Assembly (NCBI GenBank): GCA_964507485.1
Contig: CAZDQP010000001.1
Span: 753 to 64,752 of the forward strand
Length of the DNA: 64,000 nucleotides
Origin: an uncultured Pirellulales bacterium
GTDB taxonomy: Bacteria > Planctomycetota > Phycisphaerae > Sedimentisphaerales > Anaerobacaceae
Reading direction: 5' to 3'
Of the stretch, positions 15,528-58,006 are shown piece by piece. The first letter of the stretch is position 1. The number at the start of each line of letters is the position of its first letter. Below the pieces are notes generated by a model. The model did not search any database. It saw only the letters and a list, made by a program, of their open reading frames with translations, and was not told where the DNA came from. Position numbers and translations under genes: made by a program.

Positions 15528-15529
15528 CA

Positions 15530-15739
15530 ATGTCTACGTATAAGACAAAATTTAATGTCGGCGATAAGGTTACAAGTATGGGTTTTTATGGTTTTATAAC
15601 AGCGATATTTATTCGAAGTGGTATTTCTTACGAGTTTACTTATGTCGGTCCTGACGGTGTCATAAATTCTTCTGTTGTCGAGGATTTTCAGATAGAAAAA
15701 TCCAACAACGGCAAGATAGGCTTTAATAAGGTTGGTTAA
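15530..15739 (+). CDS. hypothetical protein
   Basis: ATG lies 3 nt after the terL stop. Confidence 0.4.
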   Translation: MSTYKTKFNVGDKVTSMGFYGFITAIFIRSGISYEFTYVGPDGVINSSVVEDFQIEKSNNGKIGFNKVG

Positions 15740-15946
15740 ATGAGTTACTGGTACTTGATATATGGTTTAAGTTACCTGGGAGTATTCATTTGCGGGGTGG
15801 TCTTGGGAGTTTACGTAATTGAGCGTGGCCACCGGGCGGGGGTTAAGCTGATGGACAGATTGAAGCATGACCAGGTTCCTTTCGAAGCCGAGGAGCCTAA
15901 TATTATTCAGACTCATACGGACGGTACTTTTGAGGAAGTGGGATGA
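15740..15946 (+). CDS. small membrane protein
   Basis: One hydrophobic helix, YLIYGLSYLGVFICGVVLGVYVI. Confidence 0.4.
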   Translation: MSYWYLIYGLSYLGVFICGVVLGVYVIERGHRAGVKLMDRLKHDQVPFEAEEPNIIQTHTDGTFEEVG

Positions 15947-15980
15947 ATCGATAAATGGGACAGGAAGTCCTAACGGGGCA

Positions 15981-18038: not shown

Positions 18039-18198
18039 AGAGAAGATGATAAACGGTTTTCCCGAATGGGAGGCCATGGGCTTCGCTGATACTATCGACC
18101 GGGCACTTGAAATCAAGTCGAACCCGAAGAAACTTAAGGCCGCGATGATGGTCATAAGACAGAGACAGAAAAGAGATAAGACCGCTCGGGAGGTTTGA
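18010..18198 (+). CDS. hypothetical protein
   Basis: 62-aa ORF overlapping the portal 3' end. Confidence 0.3.
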   Translation: METEAPSRPKEKMINGFPEWEAMGFADTIDRALEIKSNPKKLKAAMMVIRQRQKRDKTAREV

Positions 18199-18202
18199 CA
18201 AA

Positions 18203-18412
18203 ATGAGTCCATGGGCACCTTCAGACGCAAAACATAAAACTAAAAAAGCAAATACTAAAAAGAAAAAACGGCAGTGGTCTGATGTGGCTAACAGCGCCTT
18301 GGCTTCAGGCGACTCGGAGGCCTCGGCTATAAGACAGGCCAATGCCGTCGTTGCCGGAACAGCAAAACACAGAGGACGAAAAAAGAAGAAAGGCTGGTCA
18401 GATAAACTATGA
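18203..18412 (+). CDS. small basic protein, ChaB-like C-terminus (tentative)
   Basis: Lys-rich, with WSDVANSALASGDSEASAIRQANAVVAG. Confidence 0.3.
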   Translation: MSPWAPSDAKHKTKKANTKKKKRQWSDVANSALASGDSEASAIRQANAVVAGTAKHRGRKKKKGWSDKL

Positions 18413-18720
18413 AACATGAATTCATATTAGCTGATGTTAACGTATCAAGGCCGGGCATAGCTGTACTCAACTGTGAGATAAGGACATGGAAAGACGCCGA
18501 CCCGACCACCGGGGCAGCTGACTTTTCGGATACCATCACACAACAGGCCAAGACCCATGTCGAGGGCTTTACTACCGCACAGCTTCTTGACCGTGTCCGG
18601 AAGGAACTTACGGCCAAAGCGCAGGAAAAAATTAATATAAGGGCTGAAGAACTCCAGATACTGTCGAAACAGGCACTCGCTGATTTGATAACGGATATTG
18701 ACGGCACTTTAACCAGTTAG
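18409..18720 (+). CDS. hypothetical structural-module protein
   Basis: 103-aa ORF with a 4-nt overlap. Confidence 0.45.
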   Translation: MKHEFILADVNVSRPGIAVLNCEIRTWKDADPTTGAADFSDTITQQAKTHVEGFTTAQLLDRVRKELTAKAQEKINIRAEELQILSKQALADLITDIDGTLTS

Positions 18721-18729
18721 GAGTAGATT

Positions 18730-19365
18730 ATGGCAGCTACAATAGAAACAGAACGTACCGTTACGGAACTTCTGGCCTGGACTGACCTGTCGGATACAGG
18801 CAATGTTCCATGGCTTGAGACCTCACAGATAGACATATCAAATGAAGTAGGATGCCTCTTGAATATCGATATGGCTCAGGACAATACAACGGCCATAGCA
18901 GACTCGCCTATCTGGATTGCATGGGGCAAGGCCGGCAGTACGGACGATGACTGGCATGAATTCGCCAGAGGCAGTTATGGAACGATTGCTAATGGTGTTA
19001 CAGATTTGTCTGCTGACAGTCTTAGCTCCGGCGATACTACCTGTAGGGTGGCCGATACTACCCATATGGAATATTATGGTCAGAAAGTTTTTATAAAACA
19101 CTCAACTTTAGCAAATTCAATGATAAACACAGTCGTTGATTATTCTAATGATGTTATGGTTGAATTACTTGATGGCGCTACGGCTGATTTTACGGATTCT
19201 GCGGATATAATGTGTCCATCAACAGGTGATGGCGTAAAACAATGGTCTGTCAGAGTGCCGGATGAGATGTGGGCGGCCAAGATAAGTTTTCATAACAGGG
19301 ACAACGACGCAATATTCGCATGTCGCGTGCAGTATAACTTTATAACGGACTATACGAGTGCTTAA
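18730..19365 (+). CDS. hypothetical structural-module protein
   Basis: 211-aa ORF. Confidence 0.5.
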   Translation: MAATIETERTVTELLAWTDLSDTGNVPWLETSQIDISNEVGCLLNIDMAQDNTTAIADSPIWIAWGKAGSTDDDWHEFARGSYGTIANGVTDLSADSLSSGDTTCRVADTTHMEYYGQKVFIKHSTLANSMINTVVDYSNDVMVELLDGATADFTDSADIMCPSTGDGVKQWSVRVPDEMWAAKISFHNRDNDAIFACRVQYNFITDYTSA

Positions 19366-20345
19366 TGTCTGATTTCTTAACAAAATCTAAACCCATGATG
19401 GGGTCATTAATTGACTATGGACATTTCCTGTCCCATGGCCTTATCGGCTGCTGGCTTATGAACGAGAATAAAGGAAATGTAATTTATGATATCAGCGGCT
19501 GGGGCAGGCACCTGTCTTTCGGTGGTGATGCCAACTGGAATAAAGAGGAGCATTGCGTAAATTTTCCGACCCCTGATAATGATTATCTCGGCACAGTGGA
19601 TGTGAACGGGCCTAAACGCTTTACAGTTATAGGATGGGTCCGCATTGCCAACGATAGTATCTTTCATACTATATTAAGCTGGTGCGCCGATGCAGGAAGC
19701 GGTGCCGATGAAGGATTATGGTTCGGATTCGACCCGTCAAGCGGTGCAGGTTCGAGAATCTATTATTATTCAAAGCTCGGGCTGAATTTTTCGGCAGACA
19801 CTTCTTATAGTATAAACGATGGAGAATTTCATCAGTTGACATTAAGCTATGACGGCGTGGCCGTGCGATACGGACTTGACGGCAAATATTTCGATAGTGA
19901 CGCCGTTTCCGGTGACCCAACCTATAACGTGCTCTCCGGCGACAATACACTTTGTATTGGTTCTATTGAAAATGGTTCGATATATGGCCATGACGGAGAT
20001 ATAGGAACTGTCTCTATTTATGACCATGCAATTACTGATTTCGAATTGTCACAACTATATACCGAACCTTATTGTTTCATATCAGGCGGCAGAAGAAGAA
20101 AACTGTTTATCGCCGAGGAAATAGCCGCAGGCGGAGTTGTCCAGGCGGCGGGCGAGGCTACAATAACAACTTCATCCCTTGCGGGCATGAGAAGATTGAA
20201 TATCCCGGGGGCCGGCACCGCAACGGTGACAACCGCTTCCTATGCAGGCTGTACGGGCGGGGCGGTGTCCGGTGTAGAAGAAATACTAAGGTACAGAAGG
20301 TTTAATTCAAAAAAATTATATGGTTTCGGAAGAGTAAACTTTTGA
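19365..20345 (+). CDS. LamG/concanavalin-like domain protein
   Basis: FTVIGWVR...GEFHQLTLSYDGVAVRYGLDGKY...LCIGS fits the LamG jelly-roll pattern. Confidence 0.55.
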   Translation: MSDFLTKSKPMMGSLIDYGHFLSHGLIGCWLMNENKGNVIYDISGWGRHLSFGGDANWNKEEHCVNFPTPDNDYLGTVDVNGPKRFTVIGWVRIANDSIFHTILSWCADAGSGADEGLWFGFDPSSGAGSRIYYYSKLGLNFSADTSYSINDGEFHQLTLSYDGVAVRYGLDGKYFDSDAVSGDPTYNVLSGDNTLCIGSIENGSIYGHDGDIGTVSIYDHAITDFELSQLYTEPYCFISGGRRRKLFIAEEIAAGGVVQAAGEATITTSSLAGMRRLNIPGAGTATVTTASYAGCTGGAVSGVEEILRYRRFNSKKLYGFGRVNF

Positions 20346-22111
20346 AGAAAATAGTATTAATTATTTTATTAACAGCGGCTTTGTGTAATGCCTATACACC
20401 GCCGATAGGGATAGTCGATCCACCGTCTGTACTAATGGATGCAGATGTGGATAATTATTTAGGTCAGACCTATGACTTTACTTTAGACGGTCGCGGTGTT
20501 CAGACTTATCCTGTTTCCAGTTCGGGTCATCCATATACTCACTATATTAACAGTGCTACAGGTGATGATACAAGCAATCCGTACGGAACCGAAGCTAACC
20601 CAAGGGCTACTATTCCCTTCGAAGGCGATAAAGACCCCGATACCGCCGCAAAGGCACTTGCAGCGGGAAGTATAATCGAACTTCACGGCGGCCCTTTTGT
20701 CGGACAATCGAAAGATTCTTTGTACTGCGCGGGTACTCAGGCGGCCCCTATATTTATAAGGGGTGAGGACGGTGCTACTATAGGCACTTTCATTTTTTAT
20801 CTCGCAGGCTACTATGTAGTTATCGAGGACTTAAACTTCAGTGCGACCAGATTGCTACTGGATAAAGTGGCCGCCACGATTAGTAATTTCGGAATAGATT
20901 ACTGCATTATCAGAAATTGTACAGCCACCGGCACGGGAGTAGATGACGGTGACCTTACTTTTCTGGATATATTCGGCGGCGGTTCAGGCGCAACTTTAGA
21001 TGCTTCTTATATAGTGGTTTATAATAATGAGATTTCCCAATATGGCGACTGGACGGACACGCAGACTTTTCCGCAACCTACACCAAATGACTGTTGTGGT
21101 ATATATATCTGGGGATATTCGTCTTATATATGGATTCTCAATAATACCATCCACAATAACAACGGCGATTCCATCCAGGTAGGAAGTGATGCGGCAAGGA
21201 ACACACATCATATCTATATAGGAGACAATGAATGTTATGAGGACAGGGAAAATGCGCTCGATATAAAGGAAGCTGAAGATGTAATTGTTTCTCATAATTC
21301 ATTTCACGATTACTATGAACTCGGTAGAGATGATGATGGAATATGTTGTGTAACTCATGGCCAAGGTTCACTTCCTGGACTTTTGACGGAAAGCCCTCAT
21401 TATGTCTGGTATTTATTTAATGATATTTACAATGCCAGTTACGGCCTTCATGTAAGTCATACCGGAGAATACATATATCTTATAGGAAATACATTTAGAA
21501 ATTGTCCGAAAAGCGGTTACGGCGGACCTACCAACCAACCCGCCCTGAATGCTTATCTTTTCCAGGGCGGAGGCAGTGAATATCATTATTATATAAATAA
21601 TACGATAGAAAACTGTCAGGCGGGAATCTGGATAACCTGTAATGTATCAGACCCTACTATTTATATTTATAACAACATAATTGATACGCTTTCAGAAGGA
21701 ACTACACTTCCCTGGCAGAACAGTCATATCATTAGCGACGGCAGTAAGAACGACTGGATAGATATGGATTATAACCTGTTCTGTCAGTCAGGCGGAAGTG
21801 CCCAGATATATCTGAAACCTACCACATATTCACTTGCCACCTATCAGGCGACCGGAGAAGGATTGAACTGCGATGAAGATGATCCTGTATTTACAAATCA
21901 GGCAAGCGATGATTTGACTTTACAAATTACAAGTAACGCCAGAGGCGTTGGAACTTCTGGGGGTGTGGTAAATACGGTTTACTCTACTTTTCAAAGCCGT
22001 TATGGAATAGATATAACCGAAGATAAAAACGGCACTGATATAACGGCCTGGGACGCAGGTGCTTACCAGTACACTTCAGGCGTAAAATACTTCTTTTTAT
22101 GGATACCGTGA
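20342..22111 (+). CDS. right-handed parallel beta-helix protein (tailspike/depolymerase-like) with N-terminal signal-like segment
   Basis: Repeated NNTIHNNNGDSIQVG, NNEISQYGD and NNTIENCQAGIWI motifs. N-terminus KKIVLIILLTAALCNA. TTG start. Confidence 0.6.
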   Translation: MKKIVLIILLTAALCNAYTPPIGIVDPPSVLMDADVDNYLGQTYDFTLDGRGVQTYPVSSSGHPYTHYINSATGDDTSNPYGTEANPRATIPFEGDKDPDTAAKALAAGSIIELHGGPFVGQSKDSLYCAGTQAAPIFIRGEDGATIGTFIFYLAGYYVVIEDLNFSATRLLLDKVAATISNFGIDYCIIRNCTATGTGVDDGDLTFLDIFGGGSGATLDASYIVVYNNEISQYGDWTDTQTFPQPTPNDCCGIYIWGYSSYIWILNNTIHNNNGDSIQVGSDAARNTHHIYIGDNECYEDRENALDIKEAEDVIVSHNSFHDYYELGRDDDGICCVTHGQGSLPGLLTESPHYVWYLFNDIYNASYGLHVSHTGEYIYLIGNTFRNCPKSGYGGPTNQPALNAYLFQGGGSEYHYYINNTIENCQAGIWITCNVSDPTIYIYNNIIDTLSEGTTLPWQNSHIISDGSKNDWIDMDYNLFCQSGGSAQIYLKPTTYSLATYQATGEGLNCDEDDPVFTNQASDDLTLQITSNARGVGTSGGVVNTVYSTFQSRYGIDITEDKNGTDITAWDAGAYQYTSGVKYFFLWIP

Positions 22112-22112
22112 T

Positions 22113-22844
22113 ATGAAAAAGCTGATTTTTACTTTAATATTGTGTTTTGCAAGTTTATCTTTTGCAAGTCCAGTTTCTTCTTTCGGCGGATTTCTTGAAG
22201 CAGATACGCAGGTTATAGTTACTATCGGCCCTTTTGTTGATGTGGCCGACCATGTAACTCCTGAAACCGCAGTAACTTTAACAGGAGGTGGTGATAATGC
22301 AGATGAGGCCGAATTATTAAAAAACGGCTCTACAAGTGTGGTAGATATATCGAGTAATACATGGGCTGCCGTAACCAACTGTGACGGATGGTATTCCTTG
22401 ACACTTACAACAAGTGATACCGATACCGAGGGAAATCTGCTTATAGTAATCCAAAATGATTCGGTACATGATGCAGTCAGTGTAAGATACGAAGTGCAGG
22501 GGCAGGCTGCCTATAACAGTGAGCATATAACCAAGGCAAGCGGTTATATAGACGTCGACGTTACCGCAATAAGTACAAGTACGACCGCCGCAGATAACGA
22601 AGAAACGGCTTTTGATACGGATTTCGCAACGAACTATGACGCAGCGAATGATATGTGGGTAACTAATGTGGGTTTATGGAATAGTAATAGCATACCATGC
22701 ACGACAGCCCAGGTAGTTTCAGACGCCGCCGCTTCCGGCGATGTGGCGGATAGCGTTCTCGATGAATTAGTAACAGACCATGATAGTACGAAATGGTCTC
22801 TGGGCTGGATGCTGAAAAAAATTTACGATTATGTGAGTTGGTAA
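22113..22844 (+). CDS. hypothetical protein with signal-like N-terminus
   Basis: N-terminus MKKLIFTLILCFASLSFASP. Confidence 0.5.
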   Translation: MKKLIFTLILCFASLSFASPVSSFGGFLEADTQVIVTIGPFVDVADHVTPETAVTLTGGGDNADEAELLKNGSTSVVDISSNTWAAVTNCDGWYSLTLTTSDTDTEGNLLIVIQNDSVHDAVSVRYEVQGQAAYNSEHITKASGYIDVDVTAISTSTTAADNEETAFDTDFATNYDAANDMWVTNVGLWNSNSIPCTTAQVVSDAAASGDVADSVLDELVTDHDSTKWSLGWMLKKIYDYVSW

Positions 22845-22846
22845 TT

Positions 22847-23353
22847 ATGAGTTATGACAGTGTAATGCAGAATGGTTATAACAGGATGCGGAAGCAGGAC
22901 GTGACTGCCGATGATGCCGCTTTCGACGGTTCCAGTTCCGGCGCACGATACACGGATATCACAAAGAGAGAAGTATTCTTTTTCGATACAGGCGCTAATG
23001 TCGTGGAAATAATGTTCTACGGCGAGGGCGACGACGGTGATACTTTCGGAGTCGAAATTTGGAATGTCATTAAGGGCGGATACGCCGAATATGTCGCCGA
23101 TATAACAGGCGCGCTCGGGACCGCTTATGCAGACATTACGAACAGGGACTCCACCGAAAGATTGTTTGCCGATGATGTTACTATCAGTGATTCAGACCAC
23201 CTGAAAGGCGTAACCATTGCCGACCAGGGCAATAACAGGTATAGCAAAATAACTTATTCTCCGTTCGGCGCTATCGGCGGATGTGTCAGGTTTTATAACG
23301 TGGGCGGAGTTGGAGAAGTTGCAAGAATCGTTCCGATGATACGGTTCTTTTAG
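22847..23353 (+). CDS. structural-module protein, paralog A
   Basis: About 50% identical by eye to the product of 23769-24275 (FDGS..GARYTDIT...DDGDTFG...DSTERLF...ADQGNNR...FYNVGG...RFF). Confidence 0.55.
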   Translation: MSYDSVMQNGYNRMRKQDVTADDAAFDGSSSGARYTDITKREVFFFDTGANVVEIMFYGEGDDGDTFGVEIWNVIKGGYAEYVADITGALGTAYADITNRDSTERLFADDVTISDSDHLKGVTIADQGNNRYSKITYSPFGAIGGCVRFYNVGGVGEVARIVPMIRFF

Positions 23354-23367
23354 AAAGGAATTAAGAT

Positions 23368-23757
23368 ATGGCAGGCAGTGTTAGTGATTATGGCGAAAAC
23401 GCGCTTTTGGATTATCTTTGCGCAAGTGCTTTACAGTTGGCGCTTTTACTGGCTGACCCACTGGATGATAATTCGGGAATGCTGGAACCTACAGATGATA
23501 CGGACTATGAAAGAAAGGCGGTTGCCGCCGCCGACTGGGGCGCAGCAGGAGCAGGCTCGATAACGACGGTAAATCCCCTTAGTTTCTGTGCCGCTGATTC
23601 GGATTTTTCAACGGTCAGTCACTGGGGACTATATGATTCGACTGAAACAGGGGCAGGCAATTTGCTGGTACATGGTGATTTGAGTACGGCAAGGGATGTC
23701 ACTGGCGGTGAGACCTTAACATTTGCCGCAGGTAAGATAACTGTAACCTGCGCATAA
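23368..23757 (+). CDS. hypothetical structural-module protein
   Basis: 129-aa ORF between the two paralogs. Confidence 0.5.
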   Translation: MAGSVSDYGENALLDYLCASALQLALLLADPLDDNSGMLEPTDDTDYERKAVAAADWGAAGAGSITTVNPLSFCAADSDFSTVSHWGLYDSTETGAGNLLVHGDLSTARDVTGGETLTFAAGKITVTCA

Positions 23758-23768
23758 GGAGCAAAGAT

Positions 23769-24275
23769 ATGACAATTTTACATACAATGCGGAATCCTTT
23801 TTGTCCGGCGAGAAAACTGGATGTTACCGTAGCCGATACCGCTTTCGACGGCTCGACAAAAGGCGCACGATATACCGACATAACAAGAAGGGATATATAC
23901 GAGCTTGATGAGGCATGTAACGGTATCGAAGTATTATTTGCGGCGGAAGCGGACGACGGCGATACTTTCGGCTGTGAAATCTTAAACGTGACAAGAGATG
24001 GCCTTGCTGATATGGTTGCCGATGTAACGGGTGCGGTCGGGACTGCCTGGGCTGATATGACCAATATAGATTCAACGGAAAGATTGTTTGTTGATGATTT
24101 ATCCATATCAGCCGAATATCACTTGAAGGAAGTAACTGTAGCCGACCAGGGAAATAATCGGTTCGCTAAACTCGGCTGGGATACTATCGGGGCAAGGGCA
24201 ATATATTTCCGCTTCTATAATGTAGGAGGCGGCGGCCAATGCGCAAGAATAAGACCCTGGGTTCGGTTTTTCTAA
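23769..24275 (+). CDS. structural-module protein, paralog B
   Basis: Paralog of 22847-23353. Confidence 0.55.
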   Translation: MTILHTMRNPFCPARKLDVTVADTAFDGSTKGARYTDITRRDIYELDEACNGIEVLFAAEADDGDTFGCEILNVTRDGLADMVADVTGAVGTAWADMTNIDSTERLFVDDLSISAEYHLKEVTVADQGNNRFAKLGWDTIGARAIYFRFYNVGGGGQCARIRPWVRFF

Positions 24276-24376
24276 TTATTTAAGGAATATACTATTTAAT
24301 AAAAATTAAAAACCAAAAGAATACAAGCACAGACAAGTCGCTCTTGTTAAGGTGCTATCCCACCGAGCTTGGATAG

Positions 24377-24411
24377 AAGCCGTCGGTTATTTACTGACGG
24401 CTTTTTCTTTT
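24377..24411 (+). terminator. rho-independent terminator
   Basis: AAGCCGTCGG / CTGACGGCTT stem, 7-nt loop, then TTTTTCTTTT. Confidence 0.7.
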
Positions 24412-24543
24412 GGGAAATATGACAGTTAACTGTGAAGAAGGAAAAAGGTCTAAACGACAAACTTCGGGCTTCACGGGATTTAAGTTACCTAATAATGCGG
24501 AAAGAACCAAGAGTTCAAACGCAAGCGTTGAAAGGAAAAAGTT

Positions 24544-25416
24544 ATGGCTAAAGCAGATTCAGACCTTTTAGAAGATTTAATTGACCAGCAGTTGGAGACC
24601 GACGATGACGGCCCTCAGATTTTTTCAGACCTGCCTGATACCAGCGAAAGTGAGTTGACGGACGAAGAAGCCTCAGAAAAAGAAGAAGAAACTGAAGAGA
24701 AAGAAGAAGAGGAAAAGTCTGAAGAAAAAGACAAATGGGACAAAGACAAGCAGATGATTGAGTTCGAACGTGCCAATGCACGTCGGGCAAGAGAAGAACT
24801 TTCCACGATTCAGACTGCTTATTCCCAGGCTAATGAACAGCTCAATCAGCTTAAGCAGGAAATTACCTCTCTCAAGCATGAAAAGAAAGAAGAGGCGAAT
24901 AAGCTCGAAGATATGGATGAGGATATGGTTGATAAGGCCGTATCAAAGAATATTCGTCTTATCGAGAACAGGCTGAGAGAAAAGGAAAAGCAGGTTGATG
25001 ATATCTTGAAAAAGATATCTCAATACGAGGAAAGTCAGGCCGAGAATCAACGGAAAGAAAGCAACGAGCAGGCGAAGCAGGCGGTATTCAGGACAACTGA
25101 AAAAACGCTTGCGAGGGCCGGTATTAAAAATATGGCTAAATACCGGTCGGCCGCTAATGAACTTGCCAATCATCTCGTCGATATCGGCCAGGTTATACAG
25201 CCGCAGAACTTCGAAGAGGCCGTTGACCTTATGGCGGACTGCTATCTGAAGGTCAAAGAAAGAGCTGAAAAAAAGATTAAAAAGAAAGGGTCTGTCTCTG
25301 TTGATACGGGCAAAGGCGGCGTTGGCGGTACTCGCAAAAAAGAAACCGGAATAAAACCGGGTAAACTTAAGGACGTCAAAGCCCAAATGCTCAAAGACCG
25401 GTCTTGGCTCGACTAA
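24544..25416 (+). CDS. scaffolding protein (putative)
   Basis: Acidic Glu-rich N-terminus and a long coiled-coil, directly upstream of the capsid gene. Confidence 0.6.
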   Translation: MAKADSDLLEDLIDQQLETDDDGPQIFSDLPDTSESELTDEEASEKEEETEEKEEEEKSEEKDKWDKDKQMIEFERANARRAREELSTIQTAYSQANEQLNQLKQEITSLKHEKKEEANKLEDMDEDMVDKAVSKNIRLIENRLREKEKQVDDILKKISQYEESQAENQRKESNEQAKQAVFRTTEKTLARAGIKNMAKYRSAANELANHLVDIGQVIQPQNFEEAVDLMADCYLKVKERAEKKIKKKGSVSVDTGKGGVGGTRKKETGIKPGKLKDVKAQMLKDRSWLD

Positions 25417-25439
25417 GAACCGGAGAAATGGAGTATTAA

Positions 25440-26471
25440 ATGGCAACCACAGATTTAGATAAAGCCACACGCGAACTGTTCGTCAAGGGACTCGTTGACC
25501 AGAGTATAATGAGGACACCTGTAATTGAAGAATTGCAGAGAAGAGAACAGGTTACGCATTCCGCAGGCAAGTATGTCGAACGTCTTATTGATACCGAGGA
25601 CATCGACGACCTTGTCCAGACTTATGAAGTCAATGACGCGCTGACCGACGAGAAAAAGACAACTCTCGAAAAGCCGCGCTTCACTTGGCGAAAATCACAA
25701 CTTCCGCTTCGGTATGACGCCGACGAAGAACTGGAAAACGTACACGGCGATCAAGTTGTTCAACTGCTCAATCTTGCCGAACACCTTGTCAAAAAAGGTC
25801 ATACGGCATTAAGAAAGTGGTTTGAAAAACAGATATTCAATAACGGTTCGACCACCCCTGTCGCCGATGGAACATTATCGGCCTGGCAGAGTCTCGTTTC
25901 CGCACTCAATCACGATACTACCTATGGAACTATTTCCAGAAGTTTCTCGGCGGGCACACATGACGAATGGCAGGGCGCCGACCCGGAAGCGCTTACGGAA
26001 AACGTAAGTTCGTCAGGTCAGGACACTTCTTATACGTTGACTAAAGGTAATCTGGCAAAATGGATTAACGAAACAGATGTCGCCGATTCCATGGAGTCGC
26101 CGGAAGACCTTATGATACTGATGTGTCCGACCCTCTGGGATAAACTGCGTGCGGAGTTCGAGGCGCATTCTATGTATAAGTCCGGTATGAAACAGTCTCA
26201 GGGTATTACCAGTATGATGTTCGACGGCCACGAAATCGTTTCCGTACCGTATCTGCAAAGAACATCGACGATGAGAACCTGGCTGTTCATACTCAATCTG
26301 AGATACTTCGAACTTCGTATCCATAATCGCAGAAACTTCAAGACCACTCCTTGGAAATGGCAGGGCGAGAACACGAACGGCTACGATTTCTGGCTTTCAA
26401 GAATACTGTTGCAAGGCAATTTCTGTTGCTGGAAACCGAAATCGAGCATCTGGTTGTCCTCTGTGTCATAG
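25440..26471 (+). CDS. major capsid protein (putative)
   Basis: 343 aa, following the scaffold gene. The operon ends at a strong terminator. Confidence 0.6.
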   Translation: MATTDLDKATRELFVKGLVDQSIMRTPVIEELQRREQVTHSAGKYVERLIDTEDIDDLVQTYEVNDALTDEKKTTLEKPRFTWRKSQLPLRYDADEELENVHGDQVVQLLNLAEHLVKKGHTALRKWFEKQIFNNGSTTPVADGTLSAWQSLVSALNHDTTYGTISRSFSAGTHDEWQGADPEALTENVSSSGQDTSYTLTKGNLAKWINETDVADSMESPEDLMILMCPTLWDKLRAEFEAHSMYKSGMKQSQGITSMMFDGHEIVSVPYLQRTSTMRTWLFILNLRYFELRIHNRRNFKTTPWKWQGENTNGYDFWLSRILLQGNFCCWKPKSSIWLSSVS

Positions 26472-26524
26472 GGACTTACGACAAATTAAGCCTTTTCTTT
26501 CTCAATGAAAGGAGAAAATAAAAA

Positions 26525-27304
26525 ATGGCAAATTTAGCTATTGCAAAAATTATACTGGATGGACACAAATGGCCCGGCGCTGTGAACAGATGGAACTGGT
26601 ATCCTACAAAGACCGCCTTCTGCGGAACAACCGGTAAAGGCTGGGACAATACCGTGGATAACTTCAGTTCCGCCGACGAAACCCAACGAGCCCTGAATGC
26701 CGGACAGCCGACCAATGGTGGCACAAGAACGCCACTCGGGACTAAGATTTCATGCTACTACGATAGTACGGAGAATCCCGGTTACTACACTGTTCAATAT
26801 CTTGCCTTCCACTCGTTCGAGGACGGCATGGATATATCCAAAGATTTCAGTGACGGCAAATTCTGGTGTTCAGGTGCCGCTATCGGATGTATTTCATGCT
26901 CAGAATGGGCGGATACTTCCACGGGTCCTTGGTTCGTTGTGACAAGATGCTCTACCGGTGGAGACCAGACACAGGGTTCGCCTGTCTGTATCCCTTGCAG
27001 TACACATATTTATAGTGACGGTACTGGCGTCGCAACTAACGGATACGGTGACGGCTGCGGCTGGTTCCTGATTGATGGTGTTATGCCCTGCAAGGATATT
27101 ACCTTGCTTGACGATGAGACCGGTGCCGGCAAAGGCGTTGAGATAACCTGCCAGTGCGAACGCGGGGACATCATTATCGAAATCACCGGAGACCAACCGA
27201 TTCTCATGCCTGCTGATGTCTCTAACCTAACTGATGCTACCGGCCTTGTTGGTATAGCTGCCAGTGCGCTTACTATCGGTTGGGCATGTGCGAGTGCGGC
27301 GTAA
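26525..27304 (+). CDS. Cys-rich head-associated protein (decoration?)
   Basis: 259 aa with many Cys residues. AGGAGAAAA RBS. Confidence 0.45.
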   Translation: MANLAIAKIILDGHKWPGAVNRWNWYPTKTAFCGTTGKGWDNTVDNFSSADETQRALNAGQPTNGGTRTPLGTKISCYYDSTENPGYYTVQYLAFHSFEDGMDISKDFSDGKFWCSGAAIGCISCSEWADTSTGPWFVVTRCSTGGDQTQGSPVCIPCSTHIYSDGTGVATNGYGDGCGWFLIDGVMPCKDITLLDDETGAGKGVEITCQCERGDIIIEITGDQPILMPADVSNLTDATGLVGIAASALTIGWACASAA

Positions 27305-27324
27305 GCCGGGAAAGGAGGCCTTAA

Positions 27325-27648
27325 ATGGCAGGTTTTAATGATGCTACTCTCGGCAGCCAGCGCAAGTGTGTAATAGGAAGCGGTGTTGTGATGGAACTTG
27401 GTTATATTGATTTCAGTAACGATGTATCTGTCTCCACCACTGTACCGTCGACGCTTACCAAGTTATTAGGCTGGGTTGGTCATGTTTCTGTCTGTTCCGA
27501 TGCAGGTTGTGTATCGGCAGGATTTGGTAAACCGATTACAAATATGAGTCTTTGTGTCGGACCTGTTTTGGAAATAAGTGCACCTGATGTTACTACAGCC
27601 ACACTTACAGCAGAAGCGAAAATGACTTATACAGCCTGGGGCTGGTAG
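27325..27648 (+). CDS. hypothetical head-module protein
   Basis: 107-aa ORF with a GGAGG RBS. Confidence 0.5.
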   Translation: MAGFNDATLGSQRKCVIGSGVVMELGYIDFSNDVSVSTTVPSTLTKLLGWVGHVSVCSDAGCVSAGFGKPITNMSLCVGPVLEISAPDVTTATLTAEAKMTYTAWGW

Positions 27649-27672
27649 TATAAAAATTGCCTACTTGAACCT

Positions 27673-27733
27673 TCCGGCCCGGAGATGAACATAAAAGGCA
27701 CGGTATGATTCGTGTGCCGGGCCGGATTTTGTT
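27673..27733 (+). terminator. rho-independent terminator
   Basis: 10-bp GC-rich stem TCCGGCCCGG / CCGGGCCGGA, then TTTTGTT. Confidence 0.65.
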
Positions 27734-27748
27734 AAAAGGAGAAAGCCA

Positions 27749-28480
27749 ATGGCTATGTCCTGTAGCGAGTTGATTGACGAAATACAGGCGCGATGCGGTC
27801 GGCCTGATACGACCGACCTTATCGATACTACCTGGCTTACCAGAAGAATCAATGAAGCCCAGAAGATTATTATCGAAGAAGTACCACTTATCCCTTCTGT
27901 TACTTTTCACAACAGAGACTCAATAGATACGACCGGAACAACCAAATATGCGATAAACGAAATATCCGTAGGCGACAGTACGACAGCCAATTTTCCATGC
28001 AATATAACCGATGTATGGTATCTCGACGGAAATGAGAGTAAGAAACTCGTATTTAAGCCTGTTGATGAATACGACAGACTGTATCCCGACCCTACTCATT
28101 CGGACGCTAATAGAGAAAAACCCGTTCACTGGACTTTGAGAGATAACGGATATATTGAAATTGCTCCTCTGTGCGCAAGCGGATACTGGGACAATGACCT
28201 TAAAATAACAGGTGATTTCTATGCGGCGGATTTCACTACGGACAGCACTTCCTTAAGCGATATAAGCCGTGCAGACGAGGGGCTTATCCTTTACGGTGTA
28301 TGGAAATCGTGGCAGGCCATAGGCTCCGCCAATCCCTCAGTAGTTTCAGAGATAAGAAACGCAAAAAAAATGTGGTCAAACCCATATCCGGCCACTGGCG
28401 AAACTCTCGGATGGCTCGAGAGTTTCGGCGATAAAATAAATAGTATGGTTCAGTGGAACGATAATTTTTATGAGGATTAA
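27749..28480 (+). CDS. hypothetical structural-module protein
   Basis: 243-aa ORF with a GGAGAAAG RBS. Confidence 0.5.
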   Translation: MAMSCSELIDEIQARCGRPDTTDLIDTTWLTRRINEAQKIIIEEVPLIPSVTFHNRDSIDTTGTTKYAINEISVGDSTTANFPCNITDVWYLDGNESKKLVFKPVDEYDRLYPDPTHSDANREKPVHWTLRDNGYIEIAPLCASGYWDNDLKITGDFYAADFTTDSTSLSDISRADEGLILYGVWKSWQAIGSANPSVVSEIRNAKKMWSNPYPATGETLGWLESFGDKINSMVQWNDNFYED

Positions 28481-53297: not shown

Positions 53298-53549
53298 TCA
53301 ACGTTTCTTACCGCCTTTCTTTGGCTGTGGCGGCACTGACAGTTTCTTTATTATGCCGAGAATTTCCTCACGCAATTCAGTGTCGTCCGAAATCAGGGCA
53401 AGCTGTAAAATACGGGGCAGAGCGTTAAATATATCCACAGCAGCCTCGTAAACCCTATACTTTTTCGTATTAAGCATATCAGTTAAATCCGATACGATTT
53501 CTTTGTGTTTCTCTCCAATTCTGCTACCGATAGTTACTTTTTCGTCCAT
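53298..53549 (-). CDS. small putative DNA-binding regulator (RHH-like?)
   Basis: 83 aa, divergent from the Rsr operon promoter, with a basic tail. Confidence 0.35.
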   Translation of the reverse strand: MDEKVTIGSRIGEKHKEIVSDLTDMLNTKKYRVYEAAVDIFNALPRILQLALISDDTELREEILGIIKKLSVPPQPKKGGKKR

Positions 53550-53683
53550 TTCAATCCTCTTATCATATTATTGTTCTTGATAACGTTCCTTCTATATCTC
53601 TTTATATTACATAGGCTTACATGAAGTAAAGAATTATTATGTACTATTTTGGTATAGCAGAGTAAGATTTTTCAAAAAAAATA

Positions 53684-53711
53684 TTGACAATGTAATATTT
53701 TGTTTTATAAT
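53684..53711 (+). promoter_or_regulatory. consensus sigma70 promoter
   Basis: TTGACA, 16-nt spacer, TATAAT. Confidence 0.65.
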
Positions 53712-53764
53712 GTAAGAAGAAAATGACGATAAATAAATAATGGAGATATGAGTAAGGTTCACGG

Positions 53765-53992
53765 ATGGCGAAAAAGAAAGAACAAAAAAAAGTGAAAAGG
53801 ACAGCAAAGGTAGTAATGCTTAATTCAGACAGGGCACTTGACAGAGAAGCAGTAAAACATTTGGCGGCATTGCGTGATGCTGTGCCTGGATTATCTGAAT
53901 TAACAGATACAATGCGTTGGTTGTGCGAGAATGAAGTTCCTCTAATTATTGAGAAATATCAGAAAATGACCAAGGGATTGAAGGCAAGCTAA
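53765..53992 (+). CDS. hypothetical small basic protein
   Basis: 75 aa, first gene after the promoter. Confidence 0.45.
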   Translation: MAKKKEQKKVKRTAKVVMLNSDRALDREAVKHLAALRDAVPGLSELTDTMRWLCENEVPLIIEKYQKMTKGLKAS

Positions 53993-54020
53993 GGCAGGGC
54001 GGCTAAATTAAGGAGAATAA

Positions 54021-55328
54021 ATGGCAAGCATAAATACTAAAACAAGAGCACCGAAAACACATGAAGGAGCTATTGCTGCTCATATAAATTCAGAACAGCA
54101 ATTAAGACGTTCTGTAATGGCTTGTATGCTTTGGGAAGATCAATTCTATGAGGATGGTGTATCTATTGCGGATAGAATTGCACATTTAATATCTCTGATA
54201 GATAGCAGGATAGTATCTGAAATAGCTGCCGAGGCAAGGCATAAAATGAAGTTACGTCATGTTCCTCTGCTATTGGCTGTAGAATTAGCGAGAAAAGGCA
54301 AATTGAAAGCTAATATACTTGATGAAATTATACAACGCCCTGACGAACTAACAGAATTTCTTGCTATTTACTGGAGAAAAGGCCGTTGTCCTTTATCAAA
54401 ACAAGTCAAGCTCGGATTGGCTCAGGCATTTCCTAAATTCGATGCTTATCAGCTTGGCAAATACAACCGTGATAAGGCAATAAAATTAAAAGATGTATTA
54501 TTTCTTTGTCATGCGAAACCAAAAGATAATGAGCAAGCCGGAGTGTGGAAAAAACTAATAGATGGCAGTCTTGAGTCTCCTGATACATGGGAAGTCAATC
54601 TATCTTCCGGCAAGGACAAAAAGCAGACATGGACTAAATTACTTGCTGAAAACAAACTTGGTGGAATGGCATTACTTAGAAATCTTCGGAATATGGCTGA
54701 TGTGAATGTTGATGAAAAATTAATAATTCAAGGTCTTGCAAATATGAATGTTTCCCGAATATTACCGTTCAGATTTATCGCTGCTGCTCGGTATGCTCCG
54801 CAATGGGAAAGTCATATAGAAAAGGCCATGTTTAAATCATTATCCGAAGCTCAAAAATTCAAAGGCAAAACTATTCTTTTGCTTGATGTGTCAGGCTCGA
54901 TGGATTGGGATAGATTGTCAGGCAAATCAGATATGAGAAGACTTGATGCTGCCTGTGGTGTCGGTATCTGCGCAAGAGATATGTGCGAGCAGATAGCAGT
55001 TTATACCTTCAGTAATGAATGTGTAAGAGTGCCTGATAGACGTGGTTTTGCTCTGAGAGATGCAATAACGAATAGTCAGCAACATGGTGGAACCTATCTT
55101 GCCGGTGCAATAGATACAATTAATCGAAAAGAAACTTACGATAGAATTATTGTTGTTACCGATGAACAAAGCCATGACTCTATAAAGAATCCAAATGGTA
55201 GAGGATATGTCATAAATGTAGCCTCTTATCAAAATGGCGTTGGTTATGGTAAATGGTTGCACATAGATGGATGGAGTGAATCTGTCCTAAAATATATTCA
55301 AGAATACGAATGTTCTTTTGAAAATTAA
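54021..55328 (+). CDS. rsr: Ro60-related protein (TROVE + vWA domains)
   Basis: LRRSVMACMLWEDQFYEDG in a TROVE-like N-terminal region, and a C-terminal vWA with LLLDVSGSMDW. Followed by Y-RNA-like genes. Confidence 0.8.
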   Translation: MASINTKTRAPKTHEGAIAAHINSEQQLRRSVMACMLWEDQFYEDGVSIADRIAHLISLIDSRIVSEIAAEARHKMKLRHVPLLLAVELARKGKLKANILDEIIQRPDELTEFLAIYWRKGRCPLSKQVKLGLAQAFPKFDAYQLGKYNRDKAIKLKDVLFLCHAKPKDNEQAGVWKKLIDGSLESPDTWEVNLSSGKDKKQTWTKLLAENKLGGMALLRNLRNMADVNVDEKLIIQGLANMNVSRILPFRFIAAARYAPQWESHIEKAMFKSLSEAQKFKGKTILLLDVSGSMDWDRLSGKSDMRRLDAACGVGICARDMCEQIAVYTFSNECVRVPDRRGFALRDAITNSQQHGGTYLAGAIDTINRKETYDRIIVVTDEQSHDSIKNPNGRGYVINVASYQNGVGYGKWLHIDGWSESVLKYIQEYECSFEN

Positions 55329-55336
55329 AAGCGAAT

Positions 55337-55478
55337 AAAGCAAGTGGCGTAGATTACAGCTACTTCGCTTTGGGAGCCGGATGTCACAGGTTCGAGTCCT
55401 GTCTCTGTCCCGAATGGACAGAGTAGCTCAGTTGGTAGAGCGCCGTTAACGTACTGTTATCGCCTGTTCCCTTGCTTT
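55337..55478 (+). ncRNA. yrlA: YrlA-like Y RNA with tRNA-like domain
   Basis: Closing helix AAAGCAAG/CTTGCTTT. Internal T-arm (ACAGG TTCGAGT CCTGT), an acceptor stem capped by a CGAAT loop, and TA plus D-arm GCTC AGTTGGTA GAGC. Confidence 0.7.
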
Positions 55479-55489
55479 GTTCATAAAAT

Positions 55490-55557
55490 TGCAGGTGGCG
55501 AAGATGGGAGTTACTTCGCTTAAAACGACCAATACTCTTATCGCTTGTTCCCCTGCA
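55490..55557 (+). ncRNA. short Y-RNA-like paralog (YrlB-like)
   Basis: Closing helix TGCAGG/CCTGCA, hairpin GGCGAAG/CTTCGCT, and conserved box TTATCGCTTGTTCC. Confidence 0.5.
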
Positions 55558-55564
55558 TTAAACT

Positions 55565-55633
55565 TGTGCGTGGTGAAGGCTGGAGCTACTTCGCTGTTAA
55601 CGAAACCGTGCTCCTGTCGCTTGTTCCCGCACA
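55565..55633 (+). ncRNA. short Y-RNA-like paralog (YrlB-like)
   Basis: Closing helix TGTGCG/CGCACA, hairpin GGTGAAG/CTTCGCT, and box CTGTCGCTTGTTCC, followed by TTATTTT. Confidence 0.5.
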
Positions 55634-55657
55634 TTATTTTAACCGGAGAGAAGCTAA

Positions 55658-55855
55658 ATGGAAATTCCATTAAATCGCATGATTGAAGTCAGGCATAAAT
55701 ACGACAGAAGATTTAAGTTCTGGATTTGTGCTGATGATTTTAGCGACCCTGTTTTTTGTAAAGGAATAAGTGATAGCAGAGAATTTCCACGAGAGGTTTT
55801 AGAGTTCATCAATATTGACGACCCTGCAAAAATAGCAAAATCGCAGGCATCCTAA
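55658..55855 (+). CDS. hypothetical protein
   Basis: 65-aa ORF with a GGAGAG RBS. Confidence 0.4.
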   Translation: MEIPLNRMIEVRHKYDRRFKFWICADDFSDPVFCKGISDSREFPREVLEFINIDDPAKIAKSQAS

Positions 55856-55913
55856 CCGGAGAAACGAAATGGCCTCATCAAATCCCTTAATTATATATAG
55901 CTGTTTAGGCAAG

Positions 55914-55953
55914 GCGCCCGGGTTATGTTCTGTGATGAGGCCAGCCCGGGCGC
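55914..55953. repeat. GC-rich hairpin, copy 2
   Basis: GCGCCCGGG (55914-55922) pairs with CCCGGGCGC (55945-55953), then AGCTTTT. Its loop segment TGATGAGGCC pairs with GGCCTCATCA at 55871-55880. Confidence 0.7.
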
Positions 55954-55972
55954 AGCTTTTATAGGTGAAGAT

Positions 55973-56368
55973 ATGAGTGAAATAAAATTCAGACTCATTG
56001 AAAAAGGCCAGATTGTTGGCTATGAGCGATGGAACAGCATTGCAGGTAAGTGGTGTTACGATACTAAGTCTGATGGTATTTTTGATATCCGCAATGAATT
56101 TATTCCGCATACAGACAAAGAGCAATTTACAGGCTTGAAGGACAAGAATGGCAAGGAGATAGATTGGTGGGAAGGTGATTTGTTAAAAAGTCCTGAAGGC
56201 GAAATATGTATCATCGAATACAATCCTTATGGAGCCGGTTTTTATTTGAAAAATCCTAAATATAAAAATGGTTATTGGTATCCAATATACAAAGTACGCA
56301 AAACATGGAAAAAAATTGGCAACATCCACGAAACCCCCGACTTACTGGCAGAAAGAGCGAAGAAATGA
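55973..56368 (+). CDS. YopX family protein
   Basis: FTGLKDKNGKEIDWWEGDLL...IGNIHETPDLL. Confidence 0.75.
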   Translation: MSEIKFRLIEKGQIVGYERWNSIAGKWCYDTKSDGIFDIRNEFIPHTDKEQFTGLKDKNGKEIDWWEGDLLKSPEGEICIIEYNPYGAGFYLKNPKYKNGYWYPIYKVRKTWKKIGNIHETPDLLAERAKK

Positions 56369-56517
56369 GTAAACATTACAAAATAACCAATAGAATGATG
56401 GAGATATATATTTTGCTTGTTTGTATTTCATGGTTAATTGCTATAGGAATTATTGCCTACAATAAATATAAACAAATGCACCCATATCCACAGCAAACTC
56501 TTAAAGCAACAGAATAA
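56365..56517 (+). CDS. small membrane protein
   Basis: ATGA overlap with the upstream stop. ILLVCISWLIAIGIIAY. Confidence 0.35.
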   Translation: MSKHYKITNRMMEIYILLVCISWLIAIGIIAYNKYKQMHPYPQQTLKATE

Positions 56518-57031: not shown

Positions 57032-58006
57032 ATGAATTTAAGTGACAAGCACGAACTATATTTGTCGAGAATGGACTTACGGCCATCTTCAAAGAGGTTC
57101 AAAAACAGAGCCTTAAAGCATTTCATTCACTATTTCGGTGATATGGATGCGGATAAGGTTACTACTGAGCACGCAGAAGAGTTTCGTAGATTATTGGCGA
57201 TAGGGCGGTCAAAGAGAGCGGCTAACGGCTATATAGCAAACTTCAAGCCGTTCTGGGTATGGCTTCACTTGCACGGCCATATACTGAAGAATCCATTTCT
57301 GGGTTTACGGCTCTACCGGATCACAAAGCCTGAGCGAACTACATTTTCAGCAGATGAACTGAGTAAAATGTTGAAATTCGCCAGCCAACTCTGGAGAGTG
57401 CGTATATGCTTCGGATTATTAGGTATGAGGCGAGGTGAAATGCTTAACGTGACGGAATGCGATATAAAAATGGAAACGAATCAGCCACATATCATTTTAC
57501 AGAAAAAGAAAGCCACAGACCGAACCTGGCCGTTCGACCTTAAAGACCATGCGAATAGATACGTAGCTCTACCTGAGAAGATGGTATTTGCGGATATAAT
57601 AGTTTATCTGCATAAGGACGTAAAAGCATTAATGAATAAGATGTGTCCATATATCTGTCTCGAAGAAAAATACTGGCTTAAATTATTGAAGTGGCAAAAA
57701 AAAGGAAAGCCTGAAGGAAGTAAGACTCCTTTTGAAGAAGATATTTTGGACCCGACAGGTAATTTCCAGCGCATGTTCCGAAACCTACAAAAGAAAGCCG
57801 GTATTAAGCAGACTAAGACATATCACGAATTGAGAGCAACTTTCGCAACTAAGATGATAGAAAACTGCGGCCTGAAAAGAACATCCGTTGCTATGGGACA
57901 TTCATCACCTAAAACAACTATGGGTTATGACCGTTCTTCCGAAATGTCATTAGTGGAAAGTATCAGCAAAGCGACTTCAGAATGTTATCAGACCAACGTC
58001 CGCTAA
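57032..58006 (+). CDS. int: tyrosine site-specific integrase
   Basis: GMRRGEML (Arg), HELRATFATKM (H-x-x-R) and GHSSPKTTMGY (His, Tyr). Confidence 0.85.
   Translation: MNLSDKHELYLSRMDLRPSSKRFKNRALKHFIHYFGDMDADKVTTEHAEEFRRLLAIGRSKRAANGYIANFKPFWVWLHLHGHILKNPFLGLRLYRITKPERTTFSADELSKMLKFASQLWRVRICFGLLGMRRGEMLNVTECDIKMETNQPHIILQKKKATDRTWPFDLKDHANRYVALPEKMVFADIIVYLHKDVKALMNKMCPYICLEEKYWLKLLKWQKKGKPEGSKTPFEEDILDPTGNFQRMFRNLQKKAGIKQTKTYHELRATFATKMIENCGLKRTSVAMGHSSPKTTMGYDRSSEMSLVESISKATSECYQTNVR

Follow-up and report, generated by a model that had tools for sequence, protein, structure and literature searches.

The Ro60 and Y RNA locus

The window, the whole 64,000-nucleotide (nt) stretch of contig CAZDQP010000001.1 analysed here, is a phage genome that encodes a terminase, a portal protein, a virion protein, an integrase and YopX, with nearly all genes on one strand. 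Another of its genes encodes an ortholog of Ro60/Rsr and is followed, 10 nt past the stop codon and on the same strand, by the first of three tandem Y RNAs (modules 1 to 3), within which lies the 68-nt segment of primary interest (55378-55445, plus strand). The segment 55339-55477 very probably encodes a YrlA-type Y RNA of the bacterial and phage kind, of which 55378-55445 is the tRNA-like effector domain. The sequence, the homology, the gene context, the conserved secondary structure and one tertiary pair are direct observations. Bacterial and phage YrlA RNAs adjacent to Ro60 were already described in 2014, and the RNA of the window adds a member.

The product of the Ro60 gene matches Pfam TROVE (E 3e-17) as well as VWA_2 and vWA_Ro60, and PHROG 850, annotated "RNA-binding protein" (E 7e-47); its best match in the PDB, over the full length, is Ro60 of Thermus phage phiLo (9KOP/9L5Y, E 2.7e-25). 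Features of the locus are listed in Table 1. Alignment of the three modules shows that modules 2 and 3 lack the T, acceptor and D arms, have the strands GUGGCGaAG...UACUUCGC and UCGCuUGUUCCC in common with module 1, and apart from these retain only a small hairpin whose 7-nt loop is of the anticodon type (CUUAAAA and CUGUUAA, respectively). Judged by sequence, modules 2 and 3 look like deletion derivatives of module 1 in which only the small hairpin was kept. The three-module array recurs in collinear arrangement, with conserved Ro-binding strands, in L001, the closest viral relative (62% identity in Ro); compensatory changes set its T stem, its acceptor stem and its module 2 and 3 stems apart from those of the window. 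Two open reading frames (ORFs) that overlap the Y RNAs (55446-55670, minus strand; 55477-55686, plus strand) have no Pfam match and were treated as spurious.

Table 1. Features of the Ro60 and Y RNA locus (positions in the window; nucleotides numbered as in tRNA where indicated)
Feature	Positions	Strand	Sequence, pairing or remark
Candidate promoter	53684-53711	+	TTGACA-16-TATAAT; 12/12 match to sigma-70 consensus; consensus match only
Ro60/Rsr ortholog	54021-55328	+	435 aa; TROVE and vWA; presumed protein partner
Whole YrlA-type Y RNA (module 1)	55339-55477, ends approximate	+	Closing stem GCAAG 55340-55344 / CTTGC 55471-55475
Counterpart of GNCGAAN0-1G motif	55346-55352	+	GGCGUAG; assigned by sequence
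Y stem, 5' strand	55352-55359	+	GAUUACAG; 8 bp; pairs with 55454-55461
Conserved YUAY	55360-55363	+	CUAC; upstream of T arm; nearly invariant UUAC/AUAC in relatives
Anticodon-arm-like hairpin	55366-55378	+	7-nt loop UUUGGGA 55369-55375; G55367-C55377, C55368-G55376
Link helix, 5' strand	55378-55380	+	CGG; pairs with 55443-55445; tRNA positions 41-43
Variable-loop equivalent	55381-55385	+	AUGUC; C55385 is position 48
T arm	55386-55402	+	ACAGG UUCGAGU CCUGU; Rfam YrlA alignment; 100% paired in relatives
Capped acceptor-like stem	55403-55423	+	CTCTGTCC-CGAAT-GGACAGAG; 8 bp and CGAAU loop; strands in RNA letters CUCUGUCC/GGACAGAG, capped by CGAAU
U8-A9	55424-55425	+	UA
D arm	55426-55441	+	DNA letters GCTC/AGTTGGTA/GAGC; RNA GCUC AGUUGGUA GAGC
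G26	55442	+	G
Link helix, 3' strand	55443-55445	+	CCG; tRNA positions 27-29
Y stem, 3' strand	55454-55470	+	CUGUUAUC and conserved CGCCUGUUCC
Y RNA module 2	55490-55557	+	Ro-binding stem kept; small hairpin UCG CUUAAAA CGA 55516-55528
Y RNA module 3	55565-55633	+	Ro-binding stem kept; hairpin UUCG CUGUUAA CGAA 55590-55604
Tyrosine integrase gene	57032-58006		1.6 kb downstream of the element

Structure of the tRNA-like domain

A sequence-only reading of the window had placed a circularly permuted, YrlA-like tRNA domain at 55378-55445, and the order and coordinates that it gave for the elements are exact on the plus strand. RNAfold applied to 55378-55446 alone yields the same four-helix fold as both the minimum free energy (MFE) structure and the centroid (-25 kcal/mol, 62% of the ensemble, z = -2.1). 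The nucleotides that make tertiary interactions in tRNA are present as U8, A14, G15, G18, G19, C48, U54, U55, C56 and A58. The assignment as a permuted YrlA-type domain was borne out by a match to the Rfam YrlA family, by the adjacent Ro60/TROVE gene on the same strand, by a model built from relatives, and by covariation in every helix, including the CGG/CCG link. A short helix does connect the domain with the remainder of the RNA, with the amendment that the 68 nt are only the inner domain of an RNA of about 140 nt. When a whole module was folded, the MFE structure drew the 5' strand into a local GUAG...CUAC hairpin that is not conserved in relatives; the covarying Y stem takes its place.

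The expectation that a linear tRNA scanner would be blind to the element was correct: ARAGORN reports no tRNA genes in the window. The Rfam tRNA model gives 16.7 bits against a gathering score of 29. Across the whole window, ARAGORN found no transfer-messenger RNA (tmRNA), the permuted two-piece form included, and the Rfam tmRNA families had no match.

Covariation among relatives

Loci containing relatives of the Ro protein were gathered (18 viral, 80 metagenomic and 80 genomic; 178 in total), and pairing was tested in a 23-sequence MAFFT alignment that included the window. Over the whole structure 93.6% of cells are paired, versus 79.7% in column shuffles (none of 500 reaching the observed value) and 36-45% when the partners are slid; column shuffles ignore relatedness, and the slid-partner controls and the number of pair types offer more robust support. 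Changes on both sides were seen in 21 of the 30 pairs. In this alignment the T arm is always paired and three of its five pairs show compensatory changes, the D stem is 96.7% paired, the 8-bp Y stem is 90% paired with seven of eight pairs changed on both sides, and the closing stem is 95.7% paired with four of five pairs compensatory. RNAalifold, applied to 22 relatives without the window, recovered the Y stems, the T arm, the acceptor hairpin (all six consensus pairs compensatory) and the D arm. Relatives have a capped acceptor-like stem of 6-8 bp, built from about 30 different strand sequences. The sequence-only reading had named a lack of covariation in homologous loci as grounds for giving up the fold; compensatory changes are found in every helix of the relatives.

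One tertiary contact can be followed in the same way. Among 42 distinct relatives the Levitt pair 15:48 is G:C in 28, A:U in 13 and otherwise in one (Fisher 6e-11, uncorrected for relatedness), and in the window it is G55431:C55385. The GG of the D loop is present in 41 of the 42.

Family assignment

In a permissive scan of 55200-55800 (601 nt), the Rfam YrlA family (RF02553) matches 55378-55446 with 40 bits (E 2.2e-7) at positions 23-86 of the 114 positions of the model, which are the tRNA-like core of the family. At gathering thresholds no Rfam family reaches its score anywhere in the window. A covariance model, R1, was built from 22 full-size relatives, the window excluded, on an unsupervised RNAalifold consensus comprising the Y stems, the T arm, a 6-bp acceptor hairpin and the D arm, with compensatory changes in 25 of 30 pairs. 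R1 matches module 1 over its full length (55338-55486, 115 bits, E ~1e-32 over 64 kb), and matches module 2 (55489-55567, 54.3 bits, E 2e-14) and module 3 (55568-55630, 32.9 bits, E 5e-8) with deletions in the centre of the model, of 73 positions in the case of module 2; on both strands of the 64 kb it has no match beyond the three modules. Across the 178 Ro-containing loci there are 186 + 103 matches to R1, all on the strand of the Ro gene and often in multi-module arrays. A strict regular expression (T loop followed by D arm) had returned no match in the first 18 viral loci because the pattern was too narrow; the arrays were seen on direct reading of the sequences.

Several points weigh against the assignment of module 1 to YrlA. 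With 40 bits the RNA stays short of the Rfam gathering score of 69, and the match is confined to model positions 23-86. The motif of module 1 is GGCGUAG, with U in place of the first A of GNCGAA. No promoter or terminator specific to the Y RNAs was found. Transcription, processing, Ro60 binding and an effector of module 1 are ascribed to it by analogy with the literature on the family.

The motif reads GGCGAAG in module 2 and GGUGAAG in module 3, and both GGCGUAG and GGUGAAG are common in relatives. As for the score, the YrlA modules of Caulobacter phage CcrPW (Colossusvirus) obtain only 30-33 bits from Rfam YrlA and 112-117 bits from R1, and at its gathering score Rfam YrlA detects none of 20 Ro60-adjacent loci of Acidobacteriota, Bradyrhizobium and Caulobacterales (L099, L101, L103, L143 and L164 among them), to which R1 gives 80-140 bits. 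Because the CcrPW YrlAs and all 20 tested loci also fall below the gathering score, the miss is a property of a narrow Rfam model and not of the locus in the window; the curated Rfam YrlA family appears too narrow.

The anticodon-type hairpin

The segment between a conserved UUACUUC and the variable loop divides the relatives into three classes: one with a plain 5-bp two-strand helix (UCCGA/UCGGA) and no loop, one with almost no spacer after UUACUUC, and the class of the window, with a 14-nt spacer of the form CGC-7 nt-GCG-GG. The last class comprises 61 distinct sequences from phages, Acidobacteriota, Bradyrhizobium, Caulobacterales and others. Its two core link-helix pairs (the last two nt before the variable loop and the two after position 26) are each formed in 60 of 61 sequences, as GC, AU, CG or UA, and the three nt on either side of the hairpin loop that precede the link are paired in 56-60 of 61, with changes from CG to AU or UA. 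In five sequences (the window, L149, L131, L120 and L026) the outermost hairpin pair is impossible (C x C or C x A), and in all five that nucleotide pairs across the link helix, so that hairpin and link together keep a total of 5 bp. The hairpin and link sub-structure is 91.3% paired, versus 75.3% in shuffles (none of 500 reaching it) and 20-54% with slid partners.

The 7-nt loop resembles an anticodon loop in composition: C32 in 27 of 32, U33 in 28 of 32, a free triplet, a purine at position 37 in 31 of 32, and A38 in 27 of 32. Among 36 distinct loops, G37 follows G36 in seven of nine and other bases in three of 27 (Fisher 4e-4). Such coupling is the pattern of real tRNAs, where it is due to m1G37. 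The sequence-only reading was right about the T arm, the capped acceptor stem and the D arm; its statement that the domain has no anticodon arm is probably wrong for this YrlA subfamily, because the hairpin lying 5' of the link in 61 relatives covaries together with the link and carries an anticodon-type loop signature. A self-contained 5-bp hairpin in the style of a variable arm (UUCGC/GCCGG), which would draw on the invariant UU, was rejected: its outer two pairs vary one-sidedly (U-G/U-A) and fail at the very positions at which the link helix shows compensatory changes.

The hairpin proper consists of just 2 bp in the window: C55366 and C55378 cannot pair, and C55378 joins the link helix (C55378-G55445, G55379-C55444, G55380-C55443). 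The hairpin of the window is thus drawn from the family and not from the sequence of the window alone, and would need to stack on the link helix for stability. ARAGORN calls tRNA-Pro(tgg) in a re-permuted construct (55416-55445 joined to 55367-55410) and makes no call in the re-permuted construct originally suggested, which omits the hairpin. Of the re-permuted constructs, 25 of 26 were called. Such calls are poor evidence for an anticodon arm, because 82% were still called when the arm was shuffled.

It is possible, if doubtful, that the tRNA-like domain of the subfamily is a complete four-armed tRNA in which a 5-bp anticodon stem is split between a hairpin of 2-3 bp and a link of 3-2 bp, and that the arm is a functional recognition element. 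Equally tentatively, the Ro-binding stem would then branch out of the 5' strand of the split anticodon stem. The loop keeps Y32-U33-NNN-R37-A38 and the G36/G37 coupling, while its triplet varies by locus and is of the tRNA-Pro type in the window. If this were true, the arm, tethered to Ro60, could show a given anticodon loop to anticodon-loop enzymes or nucleases, acting, for instance, as a sensor or decoy where defence targets tRNAs, or guiding repair. The alternative to a functional arm is a silent relic of a dimeric-tRNA ancestor.

Resemblance to tRNA genes

Similarity to tRNA genes extends to the nucleotide sequence. By blastn, 55365-55403 is approximately 88-90% identical to phage tRNA-Pro genes, and 55369-55444 has 76% identity over 76 nt with the junction of tRNA-Pro and tRNA-Ala genes in Synechococcus phage S-SKS1, to which R1 gives 38.7 bits. 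The hairpin segment of the window (55366-55378) can be aligned to the anticodon arm encoded by the S-SKS1 tRNA-Pro gene, and the loop UUUGGGA is the same in both. The element could therefore be read as what is left of two tRNA genes lying side by side, a tRNA-Pro that kept its 3' two-thirds and a second tRNA that kept its 5' third, and as having no function today; Chen et al. caution against this very false positive (PMC4201824), and a dimeric-tRNA origin of YrlA has been proposed (10.1101/312249). Decay of this kind is nevertheless very unlikely to account for the locus. Between them the two "acceptor" strands form a hairpin (8 bp, 5-nt loop) that covaries in relatives, the first tRNA's 5' half and the 3' half of the second are absent and ARAGORN calls no tRNA, the flanks form a conserved and covarying Ro-binding stem, and the place beside Ro60 is kept in more than 170 loci. 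The resemblance to tRNA-Pro is best read as ancestry and not as present identity.

A permuted or split gene might alternatively be processed, by an RNase P cut in the capped stem and CCA addition, to a working tRNA-Pro(UGG) for the host pool. The ARAGORN call of the re-permuted sequence, shared by 25 of 26 relatives, and the loop identical to that of S-SKS1 tRNA-Pro would fit such a product, and YrlA of Mycobacterium smegmatis is cut by RNase P and gains CCA (10.1101/312249). This is less probable still, because the Ro-binding stem interrupts the anticodon stem, leaving no simple cut that gives a contiguous tRNA, because the acceptor stem has 8 bp, and because the 34-36 triplet drifts freely in relatives (36 distinct loops); the high call rate of constructs with shuffled anticodon arms shows how barely ARAGORN discriminates. 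Bacterial tRNA-Pro is identified by C1:G72 and A73, whereas a tRNA from the window would have G1:C72 and C73.

Tyrosine integrases often target the 3' ends of tRNA genes. The nearby integrase gene nonetheless gives next to no credit to a tRNA-derived attP or a chance match, given the E of ~1e-32 with the structure-aware R1, the compensatory changes in relatives that are mostly chromosomal loci without integrase context, and the presence of both T and D arms in conserved YrlA order inside a Ro-binding stem.

Transcription and phage context

The candidate promoter, found by consensus match, precedes a 75-aa ORF without a Pfam match (53765-53992) and the Ro60 gene. No terminator-like site was found in 53500-56500, and the ORF after the Y RNAs has a ribosome-binding site, GGAGAG. 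Excision of the Y RNAs from a polycistronic transcript is probable.

Searched with blastn against INPHARED phages, the Ro and Y region had no match, and the Y array alone had only short tRNA-like and CcrPW matches. The G+C (guanine plus cytosine) content of the terminase, portal and structural block (14000-28000) is 0.43-0.50, versus 0.36-0.42 elsewhere in the window, which may reflect a mosaic origin.

Related loci and their annotation

Three viral loci from IMG/VR encode RNAs with the opposite circular permutation of YrlA (L003 4661-4789; L014 4592-4727 and 4759-4892; L015 4432-4560). These have an open 7-bp acceptor stem, a D arm, an anticodon-like hairpin and a T arm, with the D arm and the anticodon hairpin separated by a capped Y hairpin; for the L003 RNA the MFE structure is exactly this five-arm cloverleaf. 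The Rfam tRNA model gives the RNAs of the three loci 32-43 bits, and ARAGORN makes no call. No description of this form was found in the accessible Y RNA literature.

The 5' parts of other YrlA RNAs are mistaken for tRNAs (L005 2371-2444, L099 1162-1232, L101 1165-1235, L001 4378-4441, L011 2722-2789 and L016 2648-2715). Each consists of the Y 5' strand, an anticodon-type hairpin, the variable loop, the T arm and one acceptor strand, and either receives an ARAGORN call (L005, tRNA-Asn gtt) or passes the Rfam tRNA threshold with 30-33 bits. YrlA 5' parts are likely to be a source of spurious tRNA annotations, consistent with tRNA-dimer ancestry. Because Rfam YrlA misses the clade at its threshold and standard tools call parts of these RNAs tRNAs, annotation pipelines both miss and mislabel them. 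Phage CcrPW furnishes an example of RNAs left unannotated: nine tandem Y RNA modules (L181 2089-3290; MH588545.1 ~116000-117200; R1 35-117 bits) lie upstream of gp146c, a "hypothetical protein" that is a TROVE+vWA Ro60.

Other RNAs accompany Ro60 on viral contigs. In L004 and L018 (IMG/VR; 57% identity in Ro), an RNase P RNA of the bacterial class A (47-368, 148.8 bits) and then about 25 tRNA genes (375-2950) lie directly upstream of the Ro60 gene, forming a phage-borne cluster of tRNA processing and Ro/Y RNA. In L015 a Pistol ribozyme (4998-5058, 57.9 bits versus a gathering score of 34.5) is located approximately 700 nt downstream of the Ro60 gene and Y RNAs.

Proposed mechanism and significance

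If module 1 functions like other YrlA RNAs, the transcript of the phage Ro60 gene would also carry the three Y RNAs, which would then be cut out of it. The paired 5' and 3' ends, with their GGCG(U/A)AG and UCGC-UGUUCC strands, would bind the ring-shaped phage Ro60. The inner domain is predicted to fold as a tRNA-like L in which the T and D loops form the elbow and G15:C48 is the Levitt pair; there is no CCA end, because the acceptor stem is closed by a loop. By analogy with Deinococcus radiodurans, Salmonella Typhimurium and Thermus phage phiLo, the Y RNA may link Ro60 with a host factor as a tether or gate, with the tRNA-like domain serving as an effector or stability module. The best-documented partner is the exoribonuclease PNPase, to which Y RNA couples Rsr in D. 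radiodurans and S. Typhimurium, and a phage could in this way redirect host RNA decay or quality control during infection.

With this locus a temperate-looking phage (terminase, portal, integrase) joins the viruses that carry their own set of Ro60 and Y RNAs, which supports the view of an RNA-surveillance or decay module that phages take over ready-made. The comparison of the family also provides sequence-level support for the published proposal of a dimeric-tRNA origin of YrlA, and raises the testable question of whether anything recognises the retained anticodon-type hairpin. The additions to the known picture of YrlA are modest: an anticodon-type hairpin with a split stem, a likeness to a tRNA-Pro/tRNA dimer junction, and a gap in Rfam annotation.

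Comparison with known systems

The S-SKS1 tRNA dimer differs from the RNA of the window in that its acceptor strands belong to different tRNAs and are not mutually paired, and in that it has no Ro-binding stem. The tRNA-like domain of tmRNA, the tRNA-like structure of turnip yellow mosaic virus and the permuted tRNA genes of algae and archaea likewise exhibit tRNA mimicry or circular permutation, but possess free CCA-type ends and aminoacylation or are re-joined into real tRNAs (10.1101/312249), whereas the acceptor stem of the window is closed. Yrn1 of D. radiodurans is also a Y RNA with tRNA-like features, is bound by Ro60 and tethers Rsr to PNPase; its T and D elements are reversed, with a hairpin between them at the anticodon position and the ends at the acceptor position.

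YrlB and other short Y RNAs resemble modules 2 and 3 in having a Ro-binding stem without a tRNA-like domain, in tandem with YrlA and presumably within a single transcription unit. The corresponding operon layout in Salmonella is presumably rsr-yrlBA-rtcBA.

YrlA (RF02553), known from S. Typhimurium and M. smegmatis and, as YrlA-like RNAs, from mycobacteriophages and Caulobacter phage CcrColossus, has been located no more than 4 kb from Ro60, on its strand, in 254 bacteria and 22 phages, with the T-AS-D (T arm, acceptor stem, D arm) order and the GNCGAAN0-1G and YUAY motifs, the former proposed to contact Ro60 (PMC4201824). The RNA of the window shares with it the position beside Ro60, the end stem with a GNCGAA-like motif, the YUAY, the ordered T arm, capped acceptor-like stem and D arm, the tRNA core nucleotides and the Levitt pair. 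It differs in falling below the gathering score, in having GGCGUAG instead of GNCGAA, and in the length of its acceptor-like stem, which is 8 bp versus 6 in Salmonella YrlA and 7 in M. smegmatis YrlA (10.1101/312249). S. Typhimurium YrlA folds as tRNA but "lacks the anticodon loop" (Wang et al., 10.1101/312249), whereas in the window a hairpin with an anticodon-type loop of 7 nt prolongs the link helix, itself only 3 bp long; Chen et al. in 2014 mentioned a "less-conserved" fourth stem-loop upstream of the T arm, which they read as a variable arm (PMC4201824).

Thermus phage phiLo is like the phage of the window in encoding a Ro60 with several Y-like RNAs adjoining its gene, and differs in that Yrl1 and Yrl2 are upstream of that gene whereas the Y RNAs of the window are downstream (PMC12135203). 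The term "tRNA-like" does not occur in the main text of the phiLo paper (PMC12135203). The phiLo Ro60, its Yrl RNAs and the host PNPase form a RYPER-like ternary complex in vitro (PMC12135203).

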